Source: a bacterium
GTDB lineage: Bacteria; Bacteroidota; Ignavibacteria; UBA10030
Direction of reading: 5' to 3'
DNA length: 64,000 nucleotides
Assembly: GCA_043803945.1 (NCBI GenBank)
Contig: JAZDJN010000091.1
Span: 77,128 to 141,127, forward strand
This document shows, one piece after another, positions 16,361-51,010 of this stretch (positions within the stretch are counted from its first letter, which is position 1; each line of letters opens with the position of its first letter). The translations under genes and the position numbers were made by a program. The notes below the pieces were generated by a model, which worked only from the letters and a program-made list of their open reading frames with translations, had not been told where the DNA came from and searched no databases.

Positions 16361-16407
16361 GATAACCCCCTTGTTCCTATTTGCTTTCGTAATTGCTCAG
16401 TTAGTTT

Positions 16408-16512: not shown

Positions 16513-16646
16513 TTAGTGTTTGCCTACTTTCTAATATATAAAATTCTTCTTTCGATTTCTACTCACAACACCTGATTAAGTATATCGATATCTACCGCAT
16601 CCTATTGTATCCTTTGTCACACACATTCCATACGGTTATTCCTGGA

Positions 16647-23591: not shown

Positions 23592-23676
23592 TGCAATCTC
23601 ATCGATCGAAAACGTTTAATCATTTTTTGTATTATTCAGCTTTTTTAGTAATCCTAGTACTTTCACTTATCTTTCT

Positions 23677-23738
23677 CCCCCTTTACCAAAGGGGGCCGGC
23701 CCGCTCCGCCGACGCGGGAGCGAGGCTGGAGGGGGATT
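23677..23738. repeat. REP-like hairpin with a nested GC-rich hairpin
   Basis: CCCCCTTT-ACC-AAAGGGGG, then CGCTCC..GGAGCG, then AGGGGGATT. Confidence 0.6.
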
Positions 23739-23793
23739 CTACAGCAAGCTGCAGATAAATCTCATTGAGAACTCCATTGACAAATCTCCCTTC

Positions 23794-23913
23794 GAGGTTG
23801 TCCAAAATGTAGGACGAGTTGCCAACTCGTCCACGTTGAGATAGTGAAAACATTTCATATTGCGCAATCTTGATCTATGACATACACCCATTAAGTACTT
23901 TTTGGACAACCTC
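23794..23913 (+). mobile_element. 120-bp MITE-like element, copy 1
   Basis: Perfect 14-bp TIR GAGGTTGTCCAAAA/TTTTGGACAACCTC. Internal GTAG-GACGAGTT-GCC-AACTCGTCC hairpin. Homologous to 63451-63570. Confidence 0.8.
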
Positions 23914-24065
23914 AATATGGTCCGCGTAGACGAACAACAATGCATGAACCATTCCGTTCTCCATTTATCCAGTATATAAACGAATGGAAAATACAATACC
24001 CTTATAGTGTGCTAATTATATTAGCATTCACGTTTCTGTTATAATTACAGCTTTAAAATATCGGT

Positions 24066-24107
24066 TAAAACAACAAAGGCAGACACCCAGCCGGGGTCTG
24101 CCTTTGT
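24066..24107 (-). terminator. Rho-independent terminator after the dual-cohesin gene
   Basis: Stem ACAAAGGCAGAC/GTCTGCCTTTGT followed by TGTTTT on the minus strand. Confidence 0.8.
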
Positions 24108-24133
24108 GAACAACATAAACATTCCAACACCGA

Positions 24134-25837: not shown

Positions 25838-25884
25838 CGTGTCTCCTCTGTGTGTTTATGGTCTAATTAGATAAGAGTTATTAC

Positions 25885-25908
25885 CCCGAACCGCCGAAGC
25901 GGTTCGGG
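25885..25908 (-). promoter_or_regulatory. Intergenic stem-loop with a cUUCGg tetraloop
   Basis: Minus strand CCCGAACCGC-TTCG-GCGGTTCGGG, a perfect 10-bp stem with no U-tract after it. Confidence 0.7.
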
Positions 25909-25927
25909 ATGATTTTCTAACTGCACC

Positions 25928-31900: not shown

Positions 31901-32842
31901 TGTAAAGGTACCGGCAGTCCAAGTCACTGCGCCATTCATTTGTACTGTACCAGTACTTGTATTCTCGATGCTGCCGAGGTTACCATCGGCTGTACCATCG
32001 GTGATACTCAATCCGAGGGTGTTATCGAATTTCAATGTACCAGTACCACTGTTGGTAATGTCATTCGCTCCAACGCTAACTGCGGCACTGAAGGTTGCAT
32101 TACCGCTGGTGACAACGATACCGCCAGTTGCCGTGATGGCGTAAGGTAGTGTCACTGTTGTTCCTGCAGTCTTTGCTACTGTAATGACTCCCGTTCCATA
32201 GGATGCATAGTTTGCCTCGGGGCCACCGGTGACATCGCTGCCGCCGTTATAGGTAAGGCTGAGGTTTGTGCCCTTCTGCGGAGCCTGGTTTGTAAAGGCC
32301 GATGAACCATTCATCACAATACCAATACCGGTTGCTAAACGGAAGAAGGAGGCAGTTCCGATACTCATACTGGAATTGCGCGTGCCGCTTCCCAGGGTCA
32401 GCGTGTTGCTAAGGGTAAAATATTCTGTATTGTTGGTTGTGATGATATTCAGAGTGCCACCAGAAATATCATAGGTAAATGTACCAGCACTCATTAAAAC
32501 ATTGTTGTTGGAGTTCAACGATCGTAGTTCGATCGTGAGTGATCCGCTGGCGGTGAGAGCGGCATACGTTGCCGTCGTGATTGCAACGTTACCACCTGCG
32601 TTATCACCACCATTGTAGGTACCAGCAAAGATAACAACATTGCCATTATTTGCGACGAGGGAGAGTCCCTTGTTAATGGTCGCAACAGGTCCAGATCCTG
32701 CTGGATTGTTGGTTGCATTGGCACCAGTGTAGGTGTCAGATCCGTTCGTCACGTCGACATACACAGTCGCGAGTTGACTGAACGCGGTCATCGTTGCCAC
32801 CAACATCAGTGCAACAACCAATAAGAATGTTTTTGTATTCAT
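25928..32842 (-). CDS. Giant secreted surface protein A: G/T/A/N-rich beta-helix-like body + 2 Ig + dockerin + cohesin-like + T9SS CTD
   Basis: Signal peptide and strong RBS GGAGG. VYVDVTNGSD..GPVATINKGL..IFAGTY. Dockerin GDISGDNAVLAEDASLALQ / GDVSGNTTVNAYDASLILQ (26615-26788). CTD QNYPNPFNP..SGLYLYRV..NKMMLIK. Colinear paralog of 16647-23591. Confidence 0.87.
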   Translation of the reverse strand: MNTKTFLLVVALMLVATMTAFSQLATVYVDVTNGSDTYTGANATNNPAGSGPVATINKGLSLVANNGNVVIFAGTYNGGDNAGGNVAITTATYAALTASGSLTIELRSLNSNNNVLMSAGTFTYDISGGTLNIITTNNTEYFTLSNTLTLGSGTRNSSMSIGTASFFRLATGIGIVMNGSSAFTNQAPQKGTNLSLTYNGGSDVTGGPEANYASYGTGVITVAKTAGTTVTLPYAITATGGIVVTSGNATFSAAVSVGANDITNSGTGTLKFDNTLGLSITDGTADGNLGSIENTSTGTVQMNGAVTWTAGTFTGANVFAAGANTYIVDNQSTGSIVFASSVSLANSQATAAWHATATANNGAAGVLTLGNLSAASGGAGITYVILNVNNGASGGTLNIAGGTIRGTLTNVGGATTNVTAALSVAGAFTNAGTVALGGNVLTLSGSVAHATNGGTVTATSPAGIVVSASGAASFDGGTLSNVTMSGSGTLTFGTNATTLSSLSVSAGTANISVNTTVSGAGVTTLSGGTLAVGNFTLTTGGFTMSGGIITLANNVASILNVKNDFNRTAGTFTAGAASFVTFTGTTTQQVNGGPLLQLGNLTFTNTAGTITVGQSIRASGTVTISGSTNLDMSTLNIILNAVGAAIINNGSYTAIGGGGVIFGGSTTVVGGAAVTGTTIAGTGTYSYITIDVGTANKVQMNAANNVKFNGILRMVTGDLEVNNAGGSFGPTGTTASVIRNLATGAGSTNGVIVTAGGFNTNSPVDYDLEYYGAITGDVTATVASALGGAEFTAANVRNLTITTTSAANKLILSHSATVTIKGNLKLTDNATNITEFNLPAQNLNITGSLYVGRGGLISGGNAANPITLTGDNRSHTVIGQITAAGILIETGNGCTLVGTTSTSSNTQSQLNSFSFEPADNGYSFTSTDLKVVSGNLTLQGVSTKTGATATFTMNGTSSTLTGNLVVGNATLGPNASVTIKGSSTSVDGGNLTVSNGTLTFTRGGALTTVAGNVTLTAGKLILGSNVIIAGSTSQVAGNIENGGFNYQQNGSGASPDYLRTGAGTFTGAGYLIFNETAAAIDFTPGAAFSVANLEFAGTGGNGITINASFTVSGVLKHTNAAVTLGATNITLSGTNYTFTAGSYTLGAAGALIVTGATVTFDGNGNPTLPNLTLNTDGTVTVNRSSTPSDRTITVGNVAAGVFTMTKGTLALGANDLSLANGAGTDAFVRTVGTITASATGEVIFSGGAAQFFKPGVDLTIPNLTIATTVGGVQNSEVTDNLLIVSGTLKLSGAGALLIDASKLKIGDGGTVIRTLTTSTVTNTVVFGTNTNVEYSGAEAAAIATGNELSAAVFNFTVNRTVGGGVNDQVDMGKDVTVSGTLYLQAGLLDETTKAITIAAGGTLEIGTGNFEGSGPDSPTVTSYYLVYSGGAAVTSTAEQLQTAATLLGLTVKTTNTVLTPHASATVTNVTINATGGGIQLNTVGGLTRNLTITGNLAVTAGNFITVAWTTAGTSVPKVVFQGTTFQTITVPAAGLTLPSGVDGNADGDYIDVGAGETPPVDVQVNSAATADVDKKVTLGGGNVTMGTGSNVIFTKGVIVTTVDFVWTLIQGNHPLTNKPTQGFSRSVATGDFSHFVGNVRKYVNNSTGTSIDRSVVTFPVGTMPASVGYYRPLSVFFKNTPQSAATITVSHVNSRPGGENGFKILSKKQDGSDLNLTNYPGFFWSVKSDIPLAPSYVFDIEAQAEGYAEYVADAIQNVRLIRRDSGNYNNQWLEQKNYNTGTRLYDNSTVNLTWPVVKAIDATGGITTQGSLFTYSQINKAPTFTTMPADVPKNEGETVELTWVAVDYDLGGDAVTMAKVLAPEGASALAAGKITWAIPYTFATKATPSVTTNFVVSATDTYGPLTAYDTVVVTVNNVNRAPVFTAVTAQTIKWTERLNVTLAASDLDTDALTYAFDSVTPAPATATNLPALTGTALTWQPEYLDATKTYAVKVSVTDGVAPAVEQTFNVTVNRARIKGDISGDNAVLAEDASLALQHAVGLITITDPEALWAGDVSGNTTVNAYDASLILQKVAGYPVVFAPAALGKSEASVGSIEWKNPVAKADAVTMGVKVSDDARNITSMQFTMKFNAAIATVNEVASKLPQDWTLLYKVEDGTLTVAAAGLTPVTGEAAVVSFKLKNKENRLTVSGEGFLNDGIGQTMDATEISLVPSEFGLDQNYPNPFNPTTTIKYRIAQDAAVNLVIYNMQGQKIRSVVAQEQKAGYYSIVWDGRNDAGQSVASGLYLYRVQAGSFVASNKMMLIK

Positions 32843-33226
32843 TTAATCCTCCATTATAGAGTATTGTTAATTAGTACTTCAAAAAAAACTTAAATCATTT
32901 CCCACTATTCTCTCGCGCCGGGGAGTCGCGAAAGTGAATCCTGAATTGTTGTGATCCAGGATCCGAACCCGAAGGGAAAACTTCGGGATGAAAAAAAATC
33001 AACTAGAATTGATAGCAGTTCTCTTCATCGATAGACTCCTATGCAGTGAGAGATACATGTTGATTGGCGCATTCAGAATGGGGAACAGAAATCTGAAATT
33101 TTTCTTTTGAAGCATCATTCCGCAGTACATAGCAACAGTAATTTCGATGCATCTCTAAATTTTTTGTTGTAAGCGTTTTGGTCACCAACCCTTTACCGCC
33201 CGCAGTCTGGGTGCCAAAATGTGAAG

Positions 33227-33257
33227 CAAATATATGAACATTCCAAGTTGCTGTCAA
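33227..33257 (-). promoter_or_regulatory. Proximal promoter of surface protein A
   Basis: TTGACA-N17-TATATT. TATATTTG also fits the Bacteroidota TAnnTTTG element. Confidence 0.65.
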
Positions 33258-33435
33258 GCATTTTTTTAGGCAAACCATTGATTTTCCTATAGCTATGAAT
33301 CCCTTGCCTAAAGCGAAACACTACTCCTCTTGAGTATCTTGTTGGGGAACATTAAGGAACGGGAGTTGGGGAACTGAAATCTCCCGCTTTCTTACCCACA
33401 GCTTTTTTACTCTTTTCGCTGTGGTCACTGGGATA

Positions 33436-33464
33436 AGTATAATCAATTCAGGTTCGTTTGTCAA
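33436..33464 (-). promoter_or_regulatory. Distal promoter of surface protein A
   Basis: TTGACA-N17-TATACT, near the sigma70 consensus. Confidence 0.65.
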
Positions 33465-33535
33465 GAGCCTGAGGGTTAAATTATTCAAATAAATCGCACT
33501 GTGTGAGCGGGGTCAAATGAGCGAAAATCAAGATA

Positions 33536-33611
33536 ATATGAGGGTATGAGCGTAAGAGAGTATGAGAATGAGAGGTTGAGAGTGTGAGAGGGGGAGACTT
33601 GGAGAGAGGGA
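33536..33611 (+). repeat. Degenerate ~8-bp purine-rich tandem repeat
   Basis: tatgaggg tatgagcg taagagag tatgagaa ... tgtgagag ... ttggagag. Confidence 0.55.
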
Positions 33612-33663
33612 GAATAAGAATTATGAAACTTTCAACCTGAAACTTACACCCTTCCCTCCTTTC

Positions 33664-36600
33664 CTACCTCATCTTCACAAGCTTCTCGATCCAGTCGAAT
33701 CTCTCCTCACCAAACCTGCCAGTAATCTTATAGAGATAGACTCCGTTAGCAATCTCATTTCCATCCCTATCTCTTCCATCCCAGCGCATTCGATTCAGAC
33801 CAAAACGGAGTTCCATTTGCTGCACCTTTATCTCCTGGATCAGGCGACCCGCGATGGTAAATATTTTTACTGCTATCTCTTCAGGAATCTTTGAGCCAAC
33901 GATATTAAATGTAAAATCTGTCGCCAGGTGAAATGGATTGGGGTAATTGAAAATGTCCACCACTTGATTCGTTTCATCCACCCGAAACGAGATCCTTGCT
34001 GCATTGGTGTCGGCAAAGTTGCCAGCTACATCAACCACTTGTACCGACAAAAGATGTTCTCCACTCGTGAGCTGCGGACGAACGATAAGCGTTGCCTGTG
34101 AACCTCCATTCCCCTGCTGAACGACATTTTCTGAAGTTGGAGCAGAATGAATTTTCCTGTCATCAAGCCTTAATTCAATCATATTGGGATCTACTATTCG
34201 CATTGGGACATTATCAATGAAATCAATGCGGATTTCAGGACGGGCCGAAACATAATCACCCTCGAGAATATGCTGGCCATCGAATGTAATTTCGATTGAA
34301 GGACGCACCGTATCCGAACTCACAATAATTGACAGCGCATAAAGATTATTTGACCGATAGAGTTCAGATAATCTGTTCTCCGGATCAATAGAGATCATGA
34401 GAGTGTGACTCCCTTTTCTACCAGCGGTGTTGAATATCGATTTGAATGCAGAAGCAGAATTCGGAGGTATAGAAGGAACGACAATGGTATCAAGCGGTAT
34501 GATCCACTTCCCCTGGAGATGAGCGGTAGCAACAACAGACACACTATCGACCTTCTGCCCTCCGACATTATAGACAGAACCATTCAGGATAACATCTTCA
34601 CCCTCGATTACGGTATCCTGTGAAACGGAGACAACCTGGTAGTTCACTGCTAATTCAGCGGGCGGCTCGAGTGAAACACTCCATTGTTTTAGCAACGGTG
34701 ATATTCCGGAAGCATTCGCGAAAAGGTCTGCCTTTATATTGATGGTCGGATAGATGGACGCTGGAATGGATGCCAGCGATATCGAGGTCTCTGGTGAACG
34801 GGAGATCAATGGTTCGACTTCACCATTCTTTTTTCTACCGATGACACTGACCGCAATTTGCGACCCATCTTCCAGATACTTATCTATTATAAGATTCAAC
34901 CACTTTCCCGCCGGACCGATATCAGGAGAGATGAGTGATCCCGAGTTCTCCTTCCGTGAGAAGAGCGTATCAATGACAGCACGGCCCGTATATGCCTTTC
35001 TCCATTGCTCAAACGCCGAGCCAGCCCGCGCACCCTTCCAGCCAATAAATGCCCAGGAATCCCTCAGCTTCAGGCTATCGATAAAATGGCTTCCAAATGA
35101 CCTAATAGCCGCGCGAGCTCCAGAAGTTAGCTGCAAAGCACCATCATCAACTACGAGCATCACCACAAGTTTTCCCGAATTTATTATTGCCAGTGCCATC
35201 TGCAAAGAATCTGAATGCGATGAAAGATAATTGGTGTCATACATCCGAATAAACTCAGGAGTGAATGTGACAGAATCCAGGACAGCAAGCGTAATGCCGC
35301 GGGAAAAAGTATTGGGAAGAATGTTCGATCCATCAAGTTCGAGAGCCCCAAAAGAACCATCTCCGAATCCCGACGATGTCACTCGAACACGAATGACACG
35401 CCCCGCAATCTGCATCTCATTCCGACCTGTCAATTCTGTATGAAGAAATTCACTCTGCACAAAACTCAATGAATCGTTTTGCCTCCATTGTACACCCTCC
35501 TGTTTTGTGAGAAAGAATTTCCCCTGGGAGACTGAAGCCTCCATTCCAGGCAAACCGACACGCCAGAAGTAGTATCGTTCGGCCGGCAAAGCAGGAAGAT
35601 CAAATGAGGTAACAACGTTCCCCATTTTACTCTCCAGCCGCAGCGGATTCCCAAATCCTTCACTGGAATCGATGTCCAGAGCAATGATATCGCTCCCATC
35701 CGGCGGTTTCAGGGCGGGATTCAGCACAATAAATTTCTTCACAAACTGAGAATAGTTGGGTAAAGGACTCACCACCTTCAGTGTCCTCGAGAGAACATTC
35801 AATTGAAGAGAAGCCGTATTATCCGATTCACTGATTTCATCCAGACGGTTTTCTGAGTCTCCCATAATAGTAAAGCAATGGAGCCCCGGTTTACCCTTGA
35901 CAGGATAGGCAAGAGAAATGGTGTCTGAATATCTCGGGAGCTTACAGGTTATTGTAGTCTCAATTTTTATTCCCTGGTATTGATGCAGCCACTTCACGCT
36001 CAAGGAATCGGCAGTTACCAATCCAGTATTGAACAGCGGAACACTGAGCAACACTTTCTCATCTTCATCTGTCGGGGTGGCAGGGATTGCATTGATGGCA
36101 TCGCCCCGCAGAATAATATTTGGTTTTTGAGGAAGGGCCAATTGAACTATCGGATCGCCAAGGAGTGTGTTCGTCAACATCATTACTCTATTATGGAGGC
36201 TCGACACCCCGCCCGATTCATTACTCCGTTTAATCTTTGCCAGCAAATGTGCTTTTCCGATTTCTCGTACTCCGTTCCGCAGCAACTCACGATAAAAATA
36301 TTTTGGGAGCGTCAGGGCTGAGAGTGAAGAGCCAAGCGCGGAATTGCCGATATACGCGATCGCAGAGCCTGATTCACCCAGCGTAAAGAGCTCGCCAAAT
36401 GATCTGATGTCCGGCTCAGCAAATTTCGCGGTTGAACAGCCAAAATCGGAGATCAAGGCAGATCGTCCGCGGCTATTCTGTAATTGAGCAGGATCGCCAA
36501 TCCCATTATCCCACGTTTGCGTTCCGCTATGGCCGATGTAGTTGATAACAACTCCTCCCCGATTGAGCGCTTCACGAATCTGGGAAGAAGTATATGGGCC

Positions 36601-39057
36601 AAAATTCGTTTGAGGATTGTCCGTTTTATAAAAGTGCATTGCCGTTCCACCGATGGGTGGAGGCGTAATCATCTCTTTAATAATCTCCTCCTGAACCATC
36701 TTGAACGACTCAACCTGCCCCGGAGTATTTGGATCTCCACCGGAAAAGAGAAGAAAGCTCTTATTCCAATCGTCAAAATCTTCCGTATCATATCGTTTGA
36801 TTTTCTCGATGACCCGTTTCAGTTCTATTATGGAGTTGACCGGTAGGCGTCCGACACAAAGCTGGGGAATCGGCAATGAGTCGTCCAACACCGCGAACCA
36901 GGGATCACTGACAGGGTGGCCATACGATGGGACAGTCGGGATAGGAGCAACCGATGGATTTACAGGTGGAATTGCATTCTTATAATCATACGTAGCATCT
37001 CCGACGAGGAGCAGGTACTCTGGAATCGGCCCCAACCAACGTGTGGTCGATTTGATATATTCCCGGATCGATTCCGGAGTCGGGTAACCAAATCCAAATT
37101 CATTATAGATGTCATCAACATCAACCAATGCGATCTTGCGTTTGTACTGAGACTCGATGGTCGAAGCATACGACTTACATTCCGCGATGTATCGCTTATG
37201 TGTAATCAAGAGATACTCTGCTGATCGTTGTGAATCACGAAGATTCGGGAAGTGAATACTGCTCTGGGTCAAGGGGATTTTAATCTTTGCAGGTGAGCAT
37301 AGCAAATATTTATCTCCGTTCGATACGCTATCGCGAAATGTAATTGTATATGGAGGCCCGGATGAGTGTTCAAGCACTGAAATTCGTTTCGGAGATGGGC
37401 TCAACTTATAAAGAGCGGCGGCGGGTGTTGTAAGTCCTGAAACTCGCACAACCCGAAGGCCATCATTCGGGAGATTTGTGAATGAAAAAAAAAGCGTATC
37501 TCCCACCGCACTCAACGAACGCGGATACTCAACATCGATCCAATCCACAATCATATAATTAATTGAAGAAGCAGTTGGCAGCGAGTAGACCCTAATGGCG
37601 TTCAGTCCATTCGTTAGGAGTTCAGAGTTAAAGCTCGCCTCGATGATCTCCTGAGAAAACCTGGTGACATCCTTAGCGGCGAGCGTGTCTGAAGAATTCA
37701 CCCGCACACGAATGCGATGTGCCGGTTGGCTCTCATCTGCAGCCCAACTTGCCAGGCGAACGAAGAACCTTGCCGCGGGATAATTTCTGAAGAGATTATT
37801 CACCTGAAATGTCGCCTGAAAAGTTGATTTTGCAGAGAGCCAGCTCCACCCCCAAACATCCCCGGCCAGCCAACGAGGATCCTGGTGCAGCAGCAAATTA
37901 TCTCCAACAAATTGCAGAAACGAATTTTTCTCAAGGTGTTGCACCTCAGTATACCAGCTCAGTGTATCAGCAGCTCCACGGATACCCTCATTGGTACTAT
38001 ATCTGAGGCCCTCTTCCCCGCCCCATGTTAAGCAGTAGTACGATGTGTCGGTATAGCGGTTGAGAAAATTTGGGTACTCACCCGATGCTGTGGCAATCTT
38101 CCTGTACTCTTCCAGTTCATAATTCCGAAAGCCCGGGAATTCCAAATAATCGCCTGGCTCAAATTTTCCATCTTCCTCACCGGAGCAATAGAGGGGTAAT
38201 TCCTTTCCTTTATTAAAGAGATGAAATGTTTTCGGATCAATCGAACCAATCTCGGAGATTTCTCTTTGCAAATTTTCGTAACGGAGTCGATAGAGTCCAT
38301 CCTCTGCAATCTTGAGGAGAATGTAGTTCTTCGTGTAGTCGATCCAGTTGCCGGTGGAGTCATTCCACGGCAGAGGCGATTTGGCAATACGCGGAAGATC
38401 CGCGGGATTAGCGACAAGTTCGTTTACGAGTAGATCGTTTGCTGAAGGCTGATTGTTGTGAGAGGAAGGAACTTCGAGTTTCTGGAATTCGAATCTCGCC
38501 TCAATCCGATCGGTGAATTGCAGGAGTGATCCGTTCCAGCGATAAGGGGAGAGGCGGATGCGAGCCAAACGATATCCCCGGTACCAGGCATACCCATACA
38601 CTTCGAGCAAGGGTATGTTCTCCTGCTGTTCACACTGTCGCAGAAGTACTGTCACCGGAGCTAGCAATGAGGAATCATGAGTCTGATGGTAACCGATTGG
38701 TATTGAAATCGAATCGGGAACAAGCAATGAGCTCTGAACTTGTCCAATTTGAGATTTGAGAGTGACACCGGGTGGTATTGCGAGGAAGAATTCCTGTGAT
38801 GGAAACGCCACCCGTTCAGATGCAATACGAGGTAATGCCGTTCCGATTGCAGCGATGCCCCCTGCGAAATGCTGATGATACGGAATGAGCTCAACATTCA
38901 ATACTAATCCTGATGGAAAATTCTTTGTCGTAATTGTACCCCATAAGAAACCCTTTTTGGCGGAGATGGAATCAGACACCTGAGAAAAAGCCGTCAATGT
39001 CAGAAATTGAAAATACACAGTGAGCAGTCGACCGAGCCGCCACAAATGATTATTCAT
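33664..39057 (-). CDS. Peptidase C25 (gingipain/PorU-like) with CARDB, ILEI-like and FlgD-Ig/CTD domains
   Basis: LKIAEDGLYRL, EYLLITH, DIYNEFG, YLLLVGDA, VGRLPV, NYIGHS (His ~36530), FGCST (Cys ~36437) and LLGDP motifs. ILEI-like RGITLAVLD..RDSWAFIGWKG. C-terminal NYPNPF..WDGRDRDGNEIANGVYLYKI. Confidence 0.88.
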   Translation of the reverse strand: MNNHLWRLGRLLTVYFQFLTLTAFSQVSDSISAKKGFLWGTITTKNFPSGLVLNVELIPYHQHFAGGIAAIGTALPRIASERVAFPSQEFFLAIPPGVTLKSQIGQVQSSLLVPDSISIPIGYHQTHDSSLLAPVTVLLRQCEQQENIPLLEVYGYAWYRGYRLARIRLSPYRWNGSLLQFTDRIEARFEFQKLEVPSSHNNQPSANDLLVNELVANPADLPRIAKSPLPWNDSTGNWIDYTKNYILLKIAEDGLYRLRYENLQREISEIGSIDPKTFHLFNKGKELPLYCSGEEDGKFEPGDYLEFPGFRNYELEEYRKIATASGEYPNFLNRYTDTSYYCLTWGGEEGLRYSTNEGIRGAADTLSWYTEVQHLEKNSFLQFVGDNLLLHQDPRWLAGDVWGWSWLSAKSTFQATFQVNNLFRNYPAARFFVRLASWAADESQPAHRIRVRVNSSDTLAAKDVTRFSQEIIEASFNSELLTNGLNAIRVYSLPTASSINYMIVDWIDVEYPRSLSAVGDTLFFSFTNLPNDGLRVVRVSGLTTPAAALYKLSPSPKRISVLEHSSGPPYTITFRDSVSNGDKYLLCSPAKIKIPLTQSSIHFPNLRDSQRSAEYLLITHKRYIAECKSYASTIESQYKRKIALVDVDDIYNEFGFGYPTPESIREYIKSTTRWLGPIPEYLLLVGDATYDYKNAIPPVNPSVAPIPTVPSYGHPVSDPWFAVLDDSLPIPQLCVGRLPVNSIIELKRVIEKIKRYDTEDFDDWNKSFLLFSGGDPNTPGQVESFKMVQEEIIKEMITPPPIGGTAMHFYKTDNPQTNFGPYTSSQIREALNRGGVVINYIGHSGTQTWDNGIGDPAQLQNSRGRSALISDFGCSTAKFAEPDIRSFGELFTLGESGSAIAYIGNSALGSSLSALTLPKYFYRELLRNGVREIGKAHLLAKIKRSNESGGVSSLHNRVMMLTNTLLGDPIVQLALPQKPNIILRGDAINAIPATPTDEDEKVLLSVPLFNTGLVTADSLSVKWLHQYQGIKIETTITCKLPRYSDTISLAYPVKGKPGLHCFTIMGDSENRLDEISESDNTASLQLNVLSRTLKVVSPLPNYSQFVKKFIVLNPALKPPDGSDIIALDIDSSEGFGNPLRLESKMGNVVTSFDLPALPAERYYFWRVGLPGMEASVSQGKFFLTKQEGVQWRQNDSLSFVQSEFLHTELTGRNEMQIAGRVIRVRVTSSGFGDGSFGALELDGSNILPNTFSRGITLAVLDSVTFTPEFIRMYDTNYLSSHSDSLQMALAIINSGKLVVMLVVDDGALQLTSGARAAIRSFGSHFIDSLKLRDSWAFIGWKGARAGSAFEQWRKAYTGRAVIDTLFSRKENSGSLISPDIGPAGKWLNLIIDKYLEDGSQIAVSVIGRKKNGEVEPLISRSPETSISLASIPASIYPTINIKADLFANASGISPLLKQWSVSLEPPAELAVNYQVVSVSQDTVIEGEDVILNGSVYNVGGQKVDSVSVVATAHLQGKWIIPLDTIVVPSIPPNSASAFKSIFNTAGRKGSHTLMISIDPENRLSELYRSNNLYALSIIVSSDTVRPSIEITFDGQHILEGDYVSARPEIRIDFIDNVPMRIVDPNMIELRLDDRKIHSAPTSENVVQQGNGGSQATLIVRPQLTSGEHLLSVQVVDVAGNFADTNAARISFRVDETNQVVDIFNYPNPFHLATDFTFNIVGSKIPEEIAVKIFTIAGRLIQEIKVQQMELRFGLNRMRWDGRDRDGNEIANGVYLYKITGRFGEERFDWIEKLVKMR

Positions 39058-40169
39058 TTACTCAATCCTCTCCCTGTAGTGATTATCGATTGATAGTATT
39101 CTATCGTCTCATCGATACACCGGTCATACCCAAAACATTCTTCATTCTTTTTTTTCGCTGCGCTCCCAAGTCTATGAGCTTCCTCTGGATGCTCAAGAAG
39201 GAATTGGATTGCAGAGGCCAGTGCGGGCGGGTCTTGTGGCGGCACGAGTATCCCAGTTCTGAAATGTGTAATGAACTCCGATATGCCGCCCACATTAGTG
39301 GCAATGTGCGCCTTACCAAGGCTGCCAGCTTCAAGAAGAGTAAGGGGTAATCCCTCCTGGAACGAGGCAAGGATAAAAAAATCGGCAAGCGAACCAACCG
39401 GCTGGAAGCTTATCGATGAAGGAAGAAAGCGTATAATGTCGCTAAGCTTCTGCTCAACAATTCTCTGTGCGAGCAATTGCTTCCTCTCACCATCCCCGAC
39501 GAACAGCACTACGGCATGCTCCCGGCGAAGTATGTCAGCGTTCATACGAATTGCCTCGATAATGGACCGATGATCCTTTTCGGGAGAGAGTCGGGCAACA
39601 CAGGCTATCACCTTGTTTCTTGCCGATAATCCAAGCTCCATTCTTTTTTCCACCAGTTCATAAGTCGTCATTGGTTTCAGGGCGGGTACACCGGGGAGAA
39701 TGGTTCTTACAGCACTCACCTTCTTATGAAAGCTGCCAACCAGTTCCTGATTGATTCTCGCGGAGATGGCGATGGTATTATCTCCAAATATTGAACAGTG
39801 ATGGAGGTTGTTGAACAGGCTGTGACACGTTGAGAGATGAATGGTGCCTGTGATTCTTGCGATGATTCTGCCAAGCAGATCGGAGAATCGTTTATGGGTA
39901 TGAATGATAGTGATCCTATGCGATTGCACAACGTGGATGAGCGGGAAGAGAGAGTAAGAAAGCAAAGCGATCTTCTTCATTCTCTCTGTTGGCATATGTG
40001 TATGAAGAGGAATGAATGGGATAGGGCACTCAAGCGACTCCCGCAGCGGCCCATCGATTGCTGCCACGACCACTTCTATTCCGCGTGAATATAATCCATT
40101 GGCCAAGAGTGTCACATGACGGGGCACTCCGCCAATCTCCAGATCATCCGTGAGGAGAAGAAGTTTCAT
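39054..40169 (-). CDS. Glycosyltransferase family 4
   Basis: GGVPRH, ARLSPEKDH, EGLPLTLLEA and TNVGGISE motifs. The start at 40169 gives an ATGA overlap with the upstream gene. Confidence 0.92.
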   Translation of the reverse strand: MKLLLLTDDLEIGGVPRHVTLLANGLYSRGIEVVVAAIDGPLRESLECPIPFIPLHTHMPTERMKKIALLSYSLFPLIHVVQSHRITIIHTHKRFSDLLGRIIARITGTIHLSTCHSLFNNLHHCSIFGDNTIAISARINQELVGSFHKKVSAVRTILPGVPALKPMTTYELVEKRMELGLSARNKVIACVARLSPEKDHRSIIEAIRMNADILRREHAVVLFVGDGERKQLLAQRIVEQKLSDIIRFLPSSISFQPVGSLADFFILASFQEGLPLTLLEAGSLGKAHIATNVGGISEFITHFRTGILVPPQDPPALASAIQFLLEHPEEAHRLGSAAKKKNEECFGYDRCIDETIEYYQSIITTGRGLSK

Positions 40170-41422
40170 TGGCAATGAGTGATGCATTGCTTTTCATCTT
40201 GTCCTTTGAGCATTCTCTCACAGAGTTGTTGAAAACGTACAGTATGGCATTCCCAGGAGAAATGTTCTTTTATAAACTCTCTGGCTTCCCGGCCCATCTC
40301 ACGTATCTCATCTTTCTTATCCATCAGAGCTTCAAACTGTGAAAGCCACCGATAGGGAGTCAATTCGGGAAGCGGAATGATTCCTTTTCCCATAGAGTAA
40401 ATGTTTGAAAGAATACCTACTTCTGATGAACCGATAACCGGCACACCGGCCGCAAGCGCCTCGAGTGCGGCCAAACTCATGGTCTCATACTCGGATGCCA
40501 GTGCCAGAGCATCGTACTTCCCGAGCGACTTCATCAAAACCGGATGTGGCTGCCATCCCAGAAATGTTACATGGGCTTGAAGATTCAACGACATCGAGAG
40601 GAATTTGAGCCATCGCAATTGCCAGCCATCACCTGCAACGCTAAGATGAATCCTCTTTCTCACTGAGGATTTCATGCTGGCAAGTGCATAGAGCAAGTGC
40701 TCGATATTCTTTCCGGGGGAATCGAGCCGTGCAATCGTCAGAATCTGGAGCACGGATGGATCAATGTTAGGGTCTTTAGATTCAGAGGGAATATGAACTC
40801 CTAATGGTATCTCCACGATAGTTTTATCGCAAAAGAGACTTGATATTTCGCGAGTGTGAGGCTTTGAGAGAGTAACGATACAATCCGCTTGATCGAGGAT
40901 GGAGATGATTGCCCGGCAGGCTTTTCTCGCGGCAGATTTTCGGAAGGCTCCCGGCCCATCGTGATTTATGATGACAAAGGGAATTAAGTGTTCCCGTGCA
41001 ATTCTCCCAACGATGTTTCCCACAGGGTAAGCAAAATGTTCGAGGATCAAATCATACTGGTTCGCTCTGAGAAGCGACTCGATTGTCGATTCGAGCTGTC
41101 GGCCGACGAGTATGGGCAATATTTCCCAGGTGAGAGAATAGGGCAGATTAAATATCCTCTTATGAAAAACCAGCCCTCCCCCGCCTGTGCACATCCCGGT
41201 TTTTACTGCCCGGTTAGCCTGGATCCATTTTTGTTCTCTTCTAGATCCCAAAAGATTTTTCAATCTCGGCAGCATATTGATAACCGAAAGCACATCAACC
41301 AAGGCGAACTGTTCTAGCGCATGTACATGATCAATGAACCAGCCCGAGAATGACCAATCTCCCTCAATCGGATAGCGGTCCATGACAACCAAGATTCGTG
41401 GTAAAGTCTTATGCATACTCAT
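40166..41422 (-). CDS. Glycosyltransferase family 4
   Basis: ARLDSPGKN and ETMSLAALEALAAGVPVI motifs. Probable start at 41422 (TGATG overlap); the ORF track gives 41440. Confidence 0.88.
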   Translation of the reverse strand: MSMHKTLPRILVVMDRYPIEGDWSFSGWFIDHVHALEQFALVDVLSVINMLPRLKNLLGSRREQKWIQANRAVKTGMCTGGGGLVFHKRIFNLPYSLTWEILPILVGRQLESTIESLLRANQYDLILEHFAYPVGNIVGRIAREHLIPFVIINHDGPGAFRKSAARKACRAIISILDQADCIVTLSKPHTREISSLFCDKTIVEIPLGVHIPSESKDPNIDPSVLQILTIARLDSPGKNIEHLLYALASMKSSVRKRIHLSVAGDGWQLRWLKFLSMSLNLQAHVTFLGWQPHPVLMKSLGKYDALALASEYETMSLAALEALAAGVPVIGSSEVGILSNIYSMGKGIIPLPELTPYRWLSQFEALMDKKDEIREMGREAREFIKEHFSWECHTVRFQQLCERMLKGQDEKQCITHCQ

Positions 41423-42399
41423 CACTCCATCTTCTGCCATTTACCATATCTCATGCAAATCCAGTCTACTATTGCATCGAGAAAAGCCCGCAGCGCTGCA
41501 CCTTTTCCTCCCCCCTCTTTCTGAAGCACCACGCGATAGAGCTTCCAAGGAATGGCAGCCAACTGAAGTGAAAGGAAGAGCATTCTTTCCCACCACTGGA
41601 ATATCAGAGTTCCGAAGAGAAGATGGTTGCGGGTCCCGTAATAGACCTTTATCATATCTCCCGAATGTGAACTTGCCGATCCATAGTGGTGTATTGTGCA
41701 GCGAGGAATTATAGCAAATCGAAATCCCCTTAGAGCAAGTCGGACACAGAATTCGGTATCGTCATAATAGAGGAAGAAGCGTTCATCAAACTCGCCGTAC
41801 ACCTCAACGAGACTTCGCCTGAAGAGAAAGCATCCGCCGGAAATCATCACAAGCTTGCTGCAGTCTACCCGATGCTTTTCGATATCGGTTGCTGTAACCG
41901 GGTGCAGAATTTTTGTCCATCGGCGAGGGGGTTGAAGATAAATCGCTCCGGAGAATTCTTCTCTCCCACTACGGCTGTTGATATAGCGGCCCGTTACCCC
42001 TGCTGCATTCTCCGGAGCCGAAAGCATATGACGAACAAATTCTCCTAAGCAATCAGGTGCAACGACAACATCGTTATCGAGTTTCCAAAAAAATTCAACA
42101 TCTGCATGAGCAGCGCGCAGCCCCTGGTTATATGCTGCAGGGGCTCCAAGATTTTCAATATTCTTAATGAGTGCGTTGTACCGAAATCCGCGAAGACTCA
42201 TCTCCTTGAAGAACTTTTCGATTGCCTCTACAGAACCATCAGTCGAGCCATTGTCAATCACGAGAACTTGTAAACACTCTTTTGGATAATGAAGACCGCT
42301 CAAGGATTGAAGACAAGCAAGAATATGCTGCCTTCCATTCCAATTGGGAATCAGGGCGCAGACCATCGGGAAACGGTGCAAGGACTTCTCCAAAGTCAT
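41422..42399 (-). CDS. Glycosyltransferase family 2
   Basis: IPNWNG, DNGSTDGS, LDND, FDERFFLYYDDTE and TRNH motifs. Confidence 0.93.
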   Translation of the reverse strand: MTLEKSLHRFPMVCALIPNWNGRQHILACLQSLSGLHYPKECLQVLVIDNGSTDGSVEAIEKFFKEMSLRGFRYNALIKNIENLGAPAAYNQGLRAAHADVEFFWKLDNDVVVAPDCLGEFVRHMLSAPENAAGVTGRYINSRSGREEFSGAIYLQPPRRWTKILHPVTATDIEKHRVDCSKLVMISGGCFLFRRSLVEVYGEFDERFFLYYDDTEFCVRLALRGFRFAIIPRCTIHHYGSASSHSGDMIKVYYGTRNHLLFGTLIFQWWERMLFLSLQLAAIPWKLYRVVLQKEGGGKGAALRAFLDAIVDWICMRYGKWQKME

Positions 42400-43853
42400 A
42401 GATCACCTCTCTGGAAAAACTCTTTTCGAAAGGCAAGCAGGGAGCAGAAAAGAAAGGCGATGATCCCGAAAACGTCCTGCATTACGGTGGGACGATATCC
42501 CACAGTGTGGAGAAACCCAATTCTGATGCACCAAGTAGAAAAAACGAGACATATTCCTTTGAACATGGAATGGACAACAGATAAGAGTACAATGGAAAGC
42601 GGAGCCTCCCTCCGCATGAGCCAAAGATAAAGTACAAACTCAAGGAGAAACGTCATGGAAAAAATCGCTGATGCCGCGAGAGCTCCGTAACGAGGGATCA
42701 TCAGCAGATTCATCCCGCCATTAAAGGTGAACAAGACGATGGAAACGATGAGAATTTTCCGTTGTGCATTGAGCGCAATGAAGTAGCTGCCAATAATCAC
42801 ACTTATGCTTCGAAAGATCATTCCAATAAGAAGAATGCTCAGATAGAAAGTGAGATTCTCATACTCTTTAAAAAAGACGGAGTGAAGGAGGGATGATCCT
42901 CCCGTCAGAAACACCCCAATCCCCGTCAAGAGTATCGAAAGTGTCGTTTTCACAAATGAGGAAAGATGGCCGTATAACTGTTCCTTCGGAAGAGTTGATT
43001 TTGAAAATACCACCAGCGCAACTGCTCCGGCAGGAGTAATGAGCGCAAACAACGCTTCGCAGATTCGGCAGGCCACTCTGTACTCTCCCAATTCTCCAAG
43101 TGTACGATAGGAACCCAGTAAGAGTGAATCGATGTTCGCCAGAAAAATCATGCATGCCATCGCGAGCACTAGCGGCAAGCTTGACCGGAGAAGAGCGGTT
43201 CCATTGTCTATGAGCATGGTCAATGGAATAAATTCGATACAGGATGGCATTGACCGGTATGCCATAATTGCCACGACGGCTGCACTCACTACTGTGGCCA
43301 CACCAACAATATTCAAATCATGCGGTGATGAGAGAAAAAGAACGACCACCATCATATTACAAACCGCACCGGCAACCATGGCCACGGTCGCTTCACGAAA
43401 CCTGCTCGATCCTTTGAGTGCCTGCAGAAGGGAGATATTTTGGAACAAGAGCGCGACACAACAGAAGTAAAGCAGATGGCGCAACTCAACAGATGTATTC
43501 CAGTGCATGATGCCAACCACGATGAGTAAACTCACAAACGCCCACATGCCAACACGGAGAATGAGAAATGCCCCGATCACACCGGATGATCGGCTGCGGT
43601 TTCCGGAGATGGATGAGAGAAGAGGAACATCGAGCTGAAATCCTGCGAGGAGATGGGCAAATGCCATAATCGACCAGGCAAAGGAGACGATGCCAAATGC
43701 TTCTTTCCCTAACCGGTTTGCCATCACAAGCATCGCCACAAATGAAAATACCCGCACAGTTCCTTCTCCTATCGACATCAACAGCACTGGAGATATTCTC
43801 CTGCTAGAGAGCATCAAGCGATGCTGAACCTGACTATTCTCAACCATTATCAT
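42396..43853 (-). CDS. Wzx-type polysaccharide flippase
   Basis: About 12-14 TM segments. NRLGKEAFG, NIDSLLLG..ELGEY and LMIPRYGALAAS motifs. Confidence 0.87.
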   Translation of the reverse strand: MIMVENSQVQHRLMLSSRRISPVLLMSIGEGTVRVFSFVAMLVMANRLGKEAFGIVSFAWSIMAFAHLLAGFQLDVPLLSSISGNRSRSSGVIGAFLILRVGMWAFVSLLIVVGIMHWNTSVELRHLLYFCCVALLFQNISLLQALKGSSRFREATVAMVAGAVCNMMVVVLFLSSPHDLNIVGVATVVSAAVVAIMAYRSMPSCIEFIPLTMLIDNGTALLRSSLPLVLAMACMIFLANIDSLLLGSYRTLGELGEYRVACRICEALFALITPAGAVALVVFSKSTLPKEQLYGHLSSFVKTTLSILLTGIGVFLTGGSSLLHSVFFKEYENLTFYLSILLIGMIFRSISVIIGSYFIALNAQRKILIVSIVLFTFNGGMNLLMIPRYGALAASAIFSMTFLLEFVLYLWLMRREAPLSIVLLSVVHSMFKGICLVFSTWCIRIGFLHTVGYRPTVMQDVFGIIAFLFCSLLAFRKEFFQRGDL

Positions 43854-43866
43854 AAAACCAAATGCA

Positions 43867-45192
43867 TTACTGATTTAGCAAAGAGAATTGGACATGGCTG
43901 GAAGAATGGAGTACACCCAACTCCAAGCCATCCCGAATTGAAGCGACGGTTCCCTGGCAATTCCATCGCGCATTCCTTCCAGCCAAATAAATTTGATGAG
44001 AAGCCAGCTTGGTACCCACCTCCTCGACCCAGACAGATCCTGGGTACCGCCAGGCATAGGCCATTGGAATCCAATGTGGATCTGCAATCTCACATTCCCC
44101 GATAAATTCCCAATCCTGTAATTCATGAATGATGGTATTGCACTCGTCATCAATTTGGCGACTGGTCAATTCAATGACAGAGGGAAAACTTTTTTCAACA
44201 TAGAGACTTACATGTGTTCCTTTTCCACGGTGCTGCTTCGGTAAGAACCGCTCATCGACATTACTGTAGAAACCCACGCGATGAATTCCCGTTTTGCTCT
44301 CCGGTACATAGAGCCAATGTTCAAGAGGACACCGTTCTCCTTTGCGCGCACCAACATTCAGCAGTAAGAGAGATGTATGTGGATCGGGAGGAGATTCAGT
44401 ACTGAGTCCCGTTGCTTTCACCATGAAGTGCAGCGGCAGAGAGGAGATTATTTTTGAATATGGTTGTATTGTACCTTCGGCAAGCTCAATTTCTTTCGCA
44501 GTCAGAATAATTCGGACAACCGGGCAAGAAGTTTTTAGATAACACTGAGCGGCTAAGCGGCGGAACAGATCGTCGAATCCATAGTCGGGATAAGCGAACA
44601 TCGAATGATATCCGATCTTTCTGCCCGCACTTTTCCTATCTGGAAGTATCTCTCCTCTCTCAACAGGAGTCTTATAGAAATCCTGCGGTGCGATGGATTC
44701 CCAGAGACCTGCTGTGCACAATCTGTGGTACGGGGCAAAAAACAACTCACCGAGCGTCTCTCCGAATGTAAGAGTGAGCCACTCTTTCAGTGTCGAGGCC
44801 GGTTCATTCCACGGCAAGCGGATTTCTCCGTCGATACGGTCTTTGATATTTCTTCCAAGCATGTGAAGATGATGTTGAATGGGATAGGGTATTACACATT
44901 GTTGGCGGGTCAGGTAAACTCCGGCTCGACGATCATAAGCAGTAAGCGGGACAAATGCCCTGAGATACCGTAGAATTTTTGTGTCTGATATTGAAAGCCA
45001 ATGTCCCCCTGCAATCTCAAACCGATATTCCTGTTCAGACGAAGATCTTCTTTCAGTACGAGGTTGGCCCGGTGAGAGATAATACGTTGTGCACAATCCG
45101 CCGGCGATATTGTTTTTCTCGATGATAGTAAATCCTGAGACACTGCCAGCCGCTAATCCGGCAGGCCCGGCACCAAGAATAATGATCGGCAT
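43867..45192 (-). CDS. FAD-dependent oxidoreductase, UDP-galactopyranose-mutase/protoporphyrinogen-oxidase-like
   Basis: IILGAGPAGL, EK..AGGLC, GGHW, HWLYVPE, HRVGFYSN, AY and GRNARW motifs. Located in a glycan operon. Confidence 0.72.
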   Translation of the reverse strand: MPIIILGAGPAGLAAGSVSGFTIIEKNNIAGGLCTTYYLSPGQPRTERRSSSEQEYRFEIAGGHWLSISDTKILRYLRAFVPLTAYDRRAGVYLTRQQCVIPYPIQHHLHMLGRNIKDRIDGEIRLPWNEPASTLKEWLTLTFGETLGELFFAPYHRLCTAGLWESIAPQDFYKTPVERGEILPDRKSAGRKIGYHSMFAYPDYGFDDLFRRLAAQCYLKTSCPVVRIILTAKEIELAEGTIQPYSKIISSLPLHFMVKATGLSTESPPDPHTSLLLLNVGARKGERCPLEHWLYVPESKTGIHRVGFYSNVDERFLPKQHRGKGTHVSLYVEKSFPSVIELTSRQIDDECNTIIHELQDWEFIGECEIADPHWIPMAYAWRYPGSVWVEEVGTKLASHQIYLAGRNARWNCQGTVASIRDGLELGVLHSSSHVQFSLLNQ

Positions 45193-45232
45193 AACAATCC
45201 TCTCTATTGTTATTGCAGAAAATCAACAGCAA

Positions 45233-46057
45233 TTATCTGAACATGCTTTTGAGCAGACTGATCAGAAACCAGGGATTGCCAATCAGATATCGTTTCCACA
45301 ATCGCCGTGGCTCCTGGGAGAGCCGGATTAGCCACTCACATCCGGCTCTCCCCATCCATCCAGGGCACCGCCACTTAATGCCGGAAAGATATTCAAAGCA
45401 GGAACCGCCATTGAGAAAAATCCTCGCGCCCGCTTTTGTATAATTGTTCAGGATCCATTGTTCCTGCAGTGGCATGCCCATTCCAACGACAATGACATCT
45501 GGATGCACTGCTTGAATTGAAGAGAGAAGAGCCTTTCCATCATCCGAAAAATATCCATGATGATACCCCGCAATGGTGAGTTTTGGATACCACGATGAAA
45601 TTCTCCTGACTGCTGTTTCAATAACTGTCGGACTTGACCCTAACAGAAAGACTGAACATCCCGCCTCCTGGCAGATTGAAAAGACATCATGAATCCAATC
45701 GGCCATGACTATTCGTTCCGGTATGTTCTTTCCAACGATCCACCCGCCGAATCGGACACCCTGGCCGTCGCAATAGGTCAGCAATGAGTTATTAAGATAG
45801 TCAGCAAACCATGTTAGTTGATGTGCAAGGTGAACAGCGTGGATATTTATATAGCTTATCCAGCCTCGCTGGCGTTGATGCAGAAGCTGGGAGAATTTAG
45901 TGGTGAGCATCCGGCGTGATAATGGATGAAGATGAACACCCAATATGTCAACCGATGTCTGCTCCTTGCAGACAGGTAACCAAGGTGAATGACGGAGCGG
46001 ATGACTACGAAGTTCGTCGGTGATGACTCCTTCATACCGCAGATCGGATATTCTCAT
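45233..46057 (-). CDS. WecB/TagA/CpsF family glycosyltransferase
   Basis: YCDGQGV, FLLGS, GYHHGYF, VGMGMPLQE, EWLIRL and EPRRLWKRY motifs. ATG at 46057 has a GGAGG RBS; the ORF extends to 46114. Confidence 0.93.
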   Translation of the reverse strand: MRISDLRYEGVITDELRSHPLRHSPWLPVCKEQTSVDILGVHLHPLSRRMLTTKFSQLLHQRQRGWISYINIHAVHLAHQLTWFADYLNNSLLTYCDGQGVRFGGWIVGKNIPERIVMADWIHDVFSICQEAGCSVFLLGSSPTVIETAVRRISSWYPKLTIAGYHHGYFSDDGKALLSSIQAVHPDVIVVGMGMPLQEQWILNNYTKAGARIFLNGGSCFEYLSGIKWRCPGWMGRAGCEWLIRLSQEPRRLWKRYLIGNPWFLISLLKSMFR

Positions 46058-46243
46058 AATCCCTCCCCAGGAAATATGGTGAATAACAAACGTACGGATG
46101 AATCCGCTTTTCATGTATCACTATCAGTGGACTAAATAGCAGGGAGCGCTACACAGTTTGCTGAGCAACGCTCATTCGGTGCTGCAGATACAATTAGTTA
46201 TATTTTACTAGGTTTGTCAAGACGAAAATTCAACTTTCTGTTG

Positions 46244-50971: not shown

Positions 50972-51010
50972 GGTGATTCTCCTTTCATGAAATATGAGTG
51001 ACGTGGACAA

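Follow-up and report, generated by a model that had tools for sequence, protein, structure and literature searches.

A PorU-like C25 paralogue with a lectin-type domain as the last gene of an Ignavibacteria glycan operon

In this work, we take up a 64,000-nt stretch of an Ignavibacteria genome (contig JAZDJN010000091.1, positions 77,128-141,127), hereafter the window, and describe within it a seven-gene glycan operon that ends with the gene for a 1797-aa PorU-like C25 protein; all coordinates below are window positions unless marked otherwise. The protein is, as judged by its similarities, an additional paralogue of PorU, a type IX secretion system (T9SS) sortase, it carries an ILEI/GG lectin-type domain, and its gene follows glycan-synthesis genes in nearly all of the relatives in which the upstream region can be read. 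A functional coupling between the enzyme and the operon is, in our view, likely. The fuller reading, to which we give about even weight, is that the paralogue acts as a second T9SS sortase dedicated to a linker oligosaccharide made by the operon and similar to A-LS, the pentasaccharide linker of Porphyromonas gingivalis; here we infer the chemical steps, the cargo set, and the lipid anchor.

The operon and its terminal PorU-like gene

The operon consists of seven co-oriented and tightly packed minus-strand genes that run from 46114 to 33664, with confirmed open reading frame (ORF) coordinates, and encode, from 5' to 3', a WecG/TagA-type transferase, a flavoprotein, the flippase Wzx, a GT2-family glycosyltransferase, two GT4-family glycosyltransferases, and the C25 protein. 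The intergenic gaps along this order are 40, 13, -4, -19, -22, and -4 bp, and at the last junction the sequence reads ATGA (39054-39057), where the stop codon of the second GT4 gene overlaps the start codon of the C25 gene. A preliminary description of this DNA had proposed such a co-oriented, tightly packed operon, and its coordinates, its strands, the gaps of -22 to 40 bp, and the ATGA overlap are all confirmed.

Gene families were assigned through Pfam and NCBIfam profile searches of the window proteins. The first gene (45233..46114, minus strand, as for all operon genes) encodes a WecG/TagA/CpsF-family glycosyltransferase (PF03808, 176 bits; TIGR00696, 112 bits), which likely adds the second sugar to a primer linked to undecaprenyl pyrophosphate. 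The second (43867..45192) encodes a 441-aa Rossmann flavoprotein with no Pfam match and a PRK07208-like NCBIfam match of 74 bits, below the cut-off; the solved structures related to it are exclusively eukaryote-type UDP-galactopyranose mutases (E 8e-9). Because these mutases are its only solved relatives, and because the classical mutase GLF occurs in many relatives' equivalent operons, we read the flavoprotein as a probable sugar ring mutase that would supply a furanose sugar donor, so that the earlier label of FAD oxidoreductase was correct in kind and can be refined to UDP-galactopyranose mutase-like. The Wzx-type oligosaccharide flippase comes next (42396..43853; Polysacc_synt, 67 bits; ~14 hydrophobic segments), followed by the GT2-family glycosyltransferase (41422..42399; PF00535, 81 bits), whose gene overlaps that of the flippase by 4 bp, and by the two GT4-family enzymes (40166..41440; PF00534, 79 bits, and 39054..40187; PF00534, 100 bits). 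The second GT4, whose stop codon overlaps the C25 start, has homologues of 34-42% identity directly upstream of the paralogue in three relatives' loci (L043, L044, and L049). For Wzy, WaaL, and an initiating phosphoglycosyl transferase, neither Pfam nor NCBIfam gives a family match in the operon, and Wzx is its sole polytopic protein by hydrophobic-segment count, in agreement with the earlier view of the operon as lacking Wzy and WaaL. Two Wzy_C genes, as well as Bac_transf genes, lie on other contigs of the same genome.

The C25 protein (33664..39057, minus strand) finds its best families in PorU2 (NF052324, 364 bits) and then PorU (NF033707, 309 bits), with NCBIfam matches that span residues 236-1080 and, for NF052324, cover model positions 23-879. 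From its N- to its C-terminus, it is composed of a signal peptide, a PorU-type N-terminal region, a Peptidase_C25 domain (residues 615-972; 36142..37215; PF01364, 195 bits), Ig-like domains, the ILEI/GG lectin-type domain (residues 1253-1343; 35029..35301; PF15711, 56.5 bits, cut-off 27), an Ig-like domain of the CARDB type (residues 1475-1573; 34339..34635; PF07705, 33 bits), and a T9SS type A sorting domain of its own (residues 1705-1780; 33718..33945; TIGR04183, 26 bits at a cut-off of 23; FlgD_ig, 27.9 bits), all encoded on the minus strand. The C25, ILEI, CARDB, and sorting domains recur in all 18 paralogues that we aligned, and a Propeptide_C25 match in 12 of them. His843 (codon 36529-36531) and Cys874 (codon 36436-36438) were verified at the codon level and are invariant in the same 18 proteins; the His/Cys dyad had been called intact beforehand, and we predict from it that the active site is a working one. 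The sorting domain, in turn, predicts that the paralogue is itself exported by the T9SS.

In a search of the PDB at E <= 0.01, PorU of P. gingivalis (6za2) is the sole C25 enzyme matched, with an alignment that covers the catalytic region and the C-terminal domain (CTD) of the window protein; gingipain structures gave no match at this threshold, and haemagglutinin/adhesin domains gave no Pfam match in the protein. By these similarities, the C25 protein is kin to PorU and not to the gingipains. This bears on a rival explanation, in which the paralogue is a hydrolase only, that is, a surface or secreted C25 peptidase that removes CTDs or trims proteins and docks through its lectin on the polysaccharide coat, with no transfer. 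Such an enzyme would have the intact Cys/His dyad, the Propeptide_C25-like N-terminal regions (12/18 paralogues), and the combination of an own T9SS sorting domain with several Ig-like domains that is typical of surface enzymes; it would also fit an operon with no amine-sugar pathway, and docking on the coat would explain the co-location with coat genes. The similarity, however, is not confined to the catalytic core but takes in the full PorU-type N-terminal region as well as the C-terminal domain, the enzyme matched is PorU and no gingipain, and docking alone leaves the tightly coupled last-cistron position in most loci unexplained. We consider a pure hydrolase unlikely.

The genome encodes a canonical PorU on another contig (1001 bits), with PorV directly after it (308 bits, above cut-off) and then a gene for a T9SS-dependent inactive M6-like protease. 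The preliminary description had asked whether a separate porU-porV locus exists; it does, and therefore the window C25 gene, on the evidence of its sequence, is an extra paralogue and not the housekeeping sortase. The domains of the canonical PorU are C25 and the sorting domain only, without ILEI or CARDB. PorZ is found above cut-off on another contig, and ~18 genes of the PorV/PorQ family, each above the family cut-off, are spread over many contigs in a large expansion of this T9SS shuttle family, none of them in the window.

We placed the protein in a tree of 40 rows, none of them dropped, and 728 columns, made with a fast alignment and FastTree, with no outgroup, no gingipain, and no approximately unbiased test. 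Canonical PorU proteins from both classes are united in a single clade (support 100), and the window protein falls outside it, together with the Ignavibacteria paralogues (support 84). The Bacteroidia PorU2 rows make up a weak clade (support 64). The C25 phylogeny suggested earlier thus gives a clear answer on the position outside the canonical PorU clade, whereas the deep order relative to PorU2 stays at a support of 64 in a tree without gingipains. From this and the profile scores, the window protein lies outside PorU proper and is most like PorU2, with strict PorU2 membership not reached.

PorU2 (NF052324) and PorV2 (NF052325) are provisional NCBIfam names. Across 151 genomes of the phylum, the PorU2 model matches 52 at E <= 1e-70 and exceeds its cut-off in 18, all from families other than that of the window and with ORFs of 1640-1890 aa; the Ignavibacteria paralogues sampled all score ~280-406 bits at a cut-off of 450. 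Outside Ignavibacteria, a PorV2 gene (447-556 bits) lies directly upstream of PorU2 in 6 of 12 loci examined, a canonical PorU is also present in four of five checked genomes with an above-cut-off PorU2, and glycan genes adjoin some of the loci (L165, L167, L168, and L169). ILEI matches in 15 of these PorU2 proteins are weak, reaching E <= 1e-3 in five and exceeding the Pfam cut-off in one (L169).

To examine the lectin-type domain of the window protein, residues 985-1470 were modelled with AlphaFold on an alignment of 68 sequences (mean pLDDT 92.6). In the model, beta-sandwich domains are strung together with a single alpha/beta domain, and Foldseek matches the latter to the stem of POMGnT1 (5ggj; E 4e-10, TM-score 0.82, 29% identity) as well as to FAM3A, FAM3B, and FAM3C. 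POMGnT1 binds beta-linked GlcNAc via Arg129, Asp179, and Arg207 (PMC9802357). Residues R1253, D1304, and R1332 of the window protein align with these three (phmmer, with an inferred chain-to-residue offset of 86) and constitute a putative sugar-binding triad. The suggestion made beforehand, that the ILEI-like domain might recognise the sugar, accordingly gains a predicted fold of the POMGnT1-stem type and three aligned residues that are kept.

Linkage to glycan genes across relatives

The distribution of the paralogue was first measured in 40 related genomes, 24 of the same family and 16 of the same order. A canonical-type PorU match is present in all 40 and a full-length long paralogue in 23 (E <= 1e-87, 27-49% identity; 14/24 in the family and 9/16 in the order). 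A scan of one genome per species returned at least 583 relatives of the paralogue, and the best 80 loci, almost all from metagenome-assembled genomes (MAGs) labelled Ignavibacteria, Ignavibacteriales, Melioribacteraceae, or unclassified Bacteroidota, were analysed further. The carriers include MAGs labelled Ignavibacterium album and Melioribacter. Two paralogue contigs, L130 and L101, are filed under Promethearchaeota and Gammaproteobacteria MAGs, probably as binning errors. PorU2-like genes also occur as tandem duplicates or triplicates (G031 C23:10381-20762; G075 C1:3290078-3304844; L111, L125, and L133).

Evidence for coupling comes from what lies upstream of these genes. Among 19 relatives' loci, 17 have a Pfam-confirmed glycosyltransferase within the first two upstream ORFs, and the contigs of the other two end almost immediately upstream. 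The 80 loci were labelled by BLAST against the Pfam-labelled set, and 56 of them can be read for at least 1.5 kb upstream. With unlabelled ORFs of <135 aa set aside, the gene closest upstream belongs to glycan synthesis in 53 of these 56 and is co-oriented with the paralogue in 48; the immediate upstream ORF, whatever its label, is co-oriented in 49 with a median gap of 28 bp, and a WecG homologue lies within 2.6 kb upstream in 43. Of the 38 loci with at least 8 kb of readable upstream sequence, 27 have a Wzx gene and 29 a WecG-type gene, 14 carry the classical mutase GLF, and GT9 and an unannotated or GT-C-like polytopic protein each occur in 7. The content of the operon varies by locus, with GT2, GT4, GT9, GT-C, methyltransferases, a fucosyltransferase, and the mutase in different combinations, and the linkage persists. 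At the genome level, a WecG homologue (E <= 1e-35) accompanies the paralogue in 17 of the 23 genomes that have it and occurs in 3 of the 17 that do not. The linkage read from the single locus is thus conserved in relatives, and the expected co-occurrence of C25-ILEI genes with Wzx/glycosyltransferase operons is borne out; its second half, co-occurrence with cohesin/dockerin cargo, is not, as discussed below.

Inside many relatives' glycan operons, we also observe unannotated proteins of 490-576 aa with 9-14 hydrophobic segments (for example, L043:10143-11789, L048:8613-10343, L069:7048-8529, L120:7571-9079, and L133:2497-4050), and weak PMT_2/GT-C matches occur directly upstream of the paralogue in L069, L090, and L118. 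These polytopic proteins might serve as polymerases, ligases, or periplasmic transferases; no protein of the kind is encoded in the window operon.

Conserved position can arise in another way. Housekeeping genes flank O-antigen loci in enterobacteria, and the paralogue could likewise be a component of the envelope or the T9SS in general whose gene marks the conserved border of a hypervariable lipopolysaccharide (LPS)/O-antigen locus, with no specific link to the glycan. The transferase content is indeed highly variable (GT2, GT4, GT9, GT-C, methyltransferases, and the mutase), and the flanks are conserved, with TPR, DUF4292, and M23 genes upstream and a 447-aa outer-membrane protein, HAD, and BamB-like genes downstream. 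The 447-aa neighbour, moreover, is not co-distributed with the paralogue, as expected of a mere flank: we considered it as a partner, since it follows the paralogue in 28 of 51 loci, and rejected it as synteny, because it is present in relatives without the paralogue, was not found in several with it, and is unlinked in this genome. It has no Pfam family and a C-terminal Phe (e.g., L085:15194-16537; in this genome, G000 C65:19377-20741). An edge gene with no tie to the glycan would not be expected, however, to track the WecG partner (17/23 vs 3/17), to remain co-oriented and closely spaced whatever gene lies upstream, or to carry a fused lectin domain in 18 of 18 paralogues, and the linkage survives relocation, in that the block of the window and its own family lies in another genomic setting and keeps the transferases. 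Flank synteny alone is, in our judgement, distinctly improbable, and we return to functional coupling as the preferred explanation.

Downstream cargo and neighbouring genes

The operon is followed by an 821-bp non-coding spacer (32843..33663), with no ORF of >79 aa and no Rfam match, which is the probable transcription-unit boundary between the operon and the first cargo gene. Beyond it lies an array of T9SS cargo genes in two pairs (14477..32842, minus strand; Pfam Cohesin, Dockerin_1, and Por_Secre_tail), each made of a giant dockerin-type protein (2304 or 2314 aa) and then a protein of 567 or 627 aa that bears a cohesin. At 30% identity, the two giants are paralogues of each other. Judged from its domains, the array resembles a surface assembly of the cohesin-dockerin type for which the T9SS would be the export route. 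The preliminary description had named these neighbours as cohesin/dockerin T9SS cargo, which holds for the domains and the sorting domains present in the array and less so for the adjacent 2304-aa protein, whose dockerin match of 17.6 bits falls below the Pfam cut-off of 22.9.

It had gone further and proposed that the C25 enzyme attaches precisely these cohesin/dockerin neighbours to the glycan of the operon, which would make their anchoring the purpose of the module. Four such cargo genes do follow directly on the same strand, and downstream of the paralogue in L068, the closest relative found (45% identity), lie a dockerin-type gene of 2303 aa and one of cohesin type. Against this, the 821-bp spacer separates the cargo from the operon, and of the 51 loci that can be read for at least 2.5 kb downstream, only 13 have a CTD-type gene among the next three genes. 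A giant dockerin-type cargo gene was seen directly downstream only in the closest relatives (L068 and perhaps L065), and the window's own family mostly has a gene for a Wzi-like outer-membrane protein downstream. The genome, besides, has dozens of CTD proteins, with 43 matches, ~40 of them via the C-terminal domain alone. We regard this cargo-specific version as very unlikely and find the proposed service to the neighbouring proteins unsupported; a sortase acting on some other subset of T9SS cargo is the form of the reading that we keep.

A different small gene is seen downstream of the paralogue in 12 loci (L071, L082, L088, L089, L090, L100, L110, L118, L120, L121, L122, and L127). It encodes a T9SS-CTD protein of 218-262 aa, with a start that overlaps or abuts the stop of the paralogue, and consists of a signal peptide and a ~100-residue domain with the pattern LPVEL...W.TA.E..N.GF...R...YYRLKQ.D.DG, followed by a T9SS sorting domain that is recognisable in 9 of the 12 (the L120-L122 copies end differently). 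This protein could be a dedicated substrate or cofactor of the paralogue. The 821-bp spacer of the window holds no remnant of the gene, and the homologue in this genome is unlinked (G000 C104:65978-66583).

Regulatory signals were also sought. Rfam gave no match over the whole window, and a promoter/terminator scan, whose models leave Bacteroidota-type promoters outside, returned counts at chance (24 vs 22.4 expected and 13 vs 14.2). Two sigma-70-like matches, each 11 of 12, fall in the spacer before the giant cargo gene (minus strand, 33464-33436 and 33257-33229), within a scan whose total is at chance. Directly downstream of the cargo array (11591-14152, minus strand) are genes for an ECF sigma factor, a zf-HC2 anti-sigma factor, and a GAF-SpoIIE phosphatase, possible regulators of surface-protein genes.

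On the upstream side, a HEAT-repeat gene (46323-48554) was considered as a part of the module and rejected, as neither L043, the closest locus examined, nor any other locus inspected shows it upstream. A separate tight cluster on the minus strand (48746-56549) encodes a TonB-dependent receptor, DUF4876 and DUF6850 proteins, and a BNR/Ycf48-like T9SS cargo protein, and sits between the operon and a group of nucleotide-sugar genes, namely an epimerase (56750-57700), an RmlC-like protein (58382-58927), and a UDP-glucose dehydrogenase (58932-60233), together with the window's Wzi-like outer-membrane protein gene (60472-62118), also upstream of the operon.

Proposed mechanism and comparison with known systems

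The model that we put forward starts with an unlinked phosphoglycosyl transferase, which would prime undecaprenyl phosphate. The WecG/TagA-type enzyme, the GT2, and the two GT4 enzymes would then extend the primer into a short unit of ~5 sugars, one of them perhaps a furanose provided by the mutase-like flavoprotein, and Wzx would flip this single, non-polymerised unit. Wzy/WaaL-type enzymes encoded elsewhere would join the unit to surface LPS, as has been proposed for A-LS of P. gingivalis. At the cell surface, the paralogue would hold the glycan via its ILEI domain, taking the role that PorZ has for PorU, cut the CTD off a subset of T9SS cargo, and transfer the new C-terminus to the glycan. 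The steps that the operon itself lacks are covered by Bac_transf, Wzy_C, and PorZ genes on other contigs.

Several observations weigh against this model. In the chemistry, the known PorU reaction needs an amine acceptor (PMC10202324), and the operon has no enzyme that makes an amino or aminoacyl sugar and no Wbp/Vim-type genes by Pfam and NCBIfam. The full canonical set of PorU, PorV, and PorZ is present, so a second sortase is not obviously needed, and no PorV-type partner adjoins the window gene; a PorV2-like gene on another contig (188 bits, below cut-off) was tried as the dedicated partner and rejected, since 37 of 41 genomes have it, with or without the paralogue. The protein itself lies under the curated cut-offs of both PorU2 (364 vs 450) and PorU (309 vs 420), and for a grouping with Bacteroidia PorU2 the deep branches are weak, with a support of 64 and a length of 0.013 (FastTree, no outgroup). 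Of 68 paralogues, only 23 have the full R-D-R triad, and 41 have D together with R. Lastly, six of the 23 paralogue genomes have no WecG match at threshold, though some are fragmented and one (G016) has a divergent WecG beside the paralogue, and the related genomes are not independent samples, several of their assemblies being fragmented.

A bolder version, which we hold as a tentative and rather doubtful extension, would make the paralogue and the operon a portable, self-sufficient cassette for C-terminal glyco-anchoring, with a strain-specific linker, a fused lectin that replaces PorZ in cis, a chosen subset of cargo, and variable ILEI residues that track operon content. A deep sub-clade of paralogues has lost the ILEI triad; of six loci without the triad, three have GT9 and two have WecG, and of 17 loci that retain D and R, two have GT9 and 15 have WecG. 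These counts are small and confounded by phylogeny, and we do not use them as evidence. If the cassette exists, swaps of glycosyltransferases would let Ignavibacteria diversify the chemistry of their protein coat.

To our knowledge, the surface fixation of T9SS cargo is understood chemically in very few organisms. A PorU-type enzyme encoded in one operon with a few glycan genes, across hundreds of genomes, nominates the genes of its acceptor glycan directly, and the arrangement suggests that the lectin domain takes over glycan presentation. It thereby offers a concrete, testable system for sortase-glycan specificity outside Bacteroidia and a first functional lead for the unstudied PorU2 paralogues; if the enzyme is only a docked protease, the finding reduces to the annotation of a widespread surface peptidase. 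In the literature that we searched, a limited library, we found no paper on PorU2, PorU-like, or C25-ILEI proteins or on PorU in Ignavibacteria, and the only earlier trace of a second PorU-type family that we found is the pair of provisional NCBI family names. What appears new is the well-preserved lectin domain of the Ignavibacteria form, the systematic position as last gene of a Wzx/glycosyltransferase operon, and the parallel with A-LS.

We compare the module with five known systems, beginning with A-LS itself. In the model of Veith et al. 2026 (PMC13086638), A-LS is a single pentasaccharide linker built on undecaprenyl pyrophosphate by an initiator and three transferases (the pathway enzymes are WbaP, GtfC, GtfF, and VimF), flipped, and joined to O-polysaccharide by the general Wzy/WaaL machinery, with no polymerase or ligase of its own; PorU then uses it as the acceptor for cargo (PMC13086638; PMC10202324). 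This single-copy pentasaccharide is a close precedent, by analogy, for the short, flipped, ligase-less glycan that had been proposed for the window. The window operon presents a matching parts list, with four transferases, a flippase, and no Wzy or WaaL. It differs in that it has no Wbp/Vim-type amine-sugar genes, its initiator is encoded elsewhere, and the sortase-like gene stands inside the operon.

With PorU (NF033707), the paralogue shares the C25 Cys/His pair, the PorU-type N-terminal region, and a retained T9SS C-terminal domain, and the job proposed for it is the same as that described in PMC10202324, namely to cut the CTD of cargo and join the cargo to a surface glycan. The paralogue departs from PorU in its score (309 at a cut-off of 420), in its position outside the canonical clade, and in having no adjacent porV. 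It also has ~450-600 extra residues (ILEI, CARDB, and Ig-like domains) that are absent from the genome's own PorU, and its gene lies inside a glycan operon. The linker genes of P. gingivalis are reportedly not clustered with porU.

PorU2 (NF052324) is the best-scoring family for the paralogue and resembles it in its length of ~1650-1830 aa, in the extra domains between C25 and the sorting domain, and in weak ILEI matches at the equivalent place in 5 of the 15 PorU2 proteins scanned. The paralogue, in contrast, scores 364 where 450 is asked, has glycosyltransferases upstream where PorU2 has PorV2 (6/12), and belongs to a form in which ILEI is strong in 18 of 18 proteins, against 1 of 15 above the Pfam cut-off among the others.

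The stem of POMGnT1 and the GG domain of FAM3/ILEI (PF15711; 5ggj, 5lc3, and 2yoq) have the same fold as the modelled domain at 28-30% identity. In POMGnT1, as here, a lectin module is joined to an enzyme that acts on a glycoconjugate; in the paralogue, however, the domain is fused to a peptidase/sortase and not to a glycosyltransferase.

The last parallel is with the exosortase/PEP-CTERM system, in which the gene for a transpeptidase-like protein-sorting enzyme is embedded in exopolysaccharide loci. The genomic logic is the same, a sorting gene within a polysaccharide operon, whereas the enzymes are unrelated, a membrane exosortase in one case and a secreted C25 peptidase in the other, as are the sorting signals.

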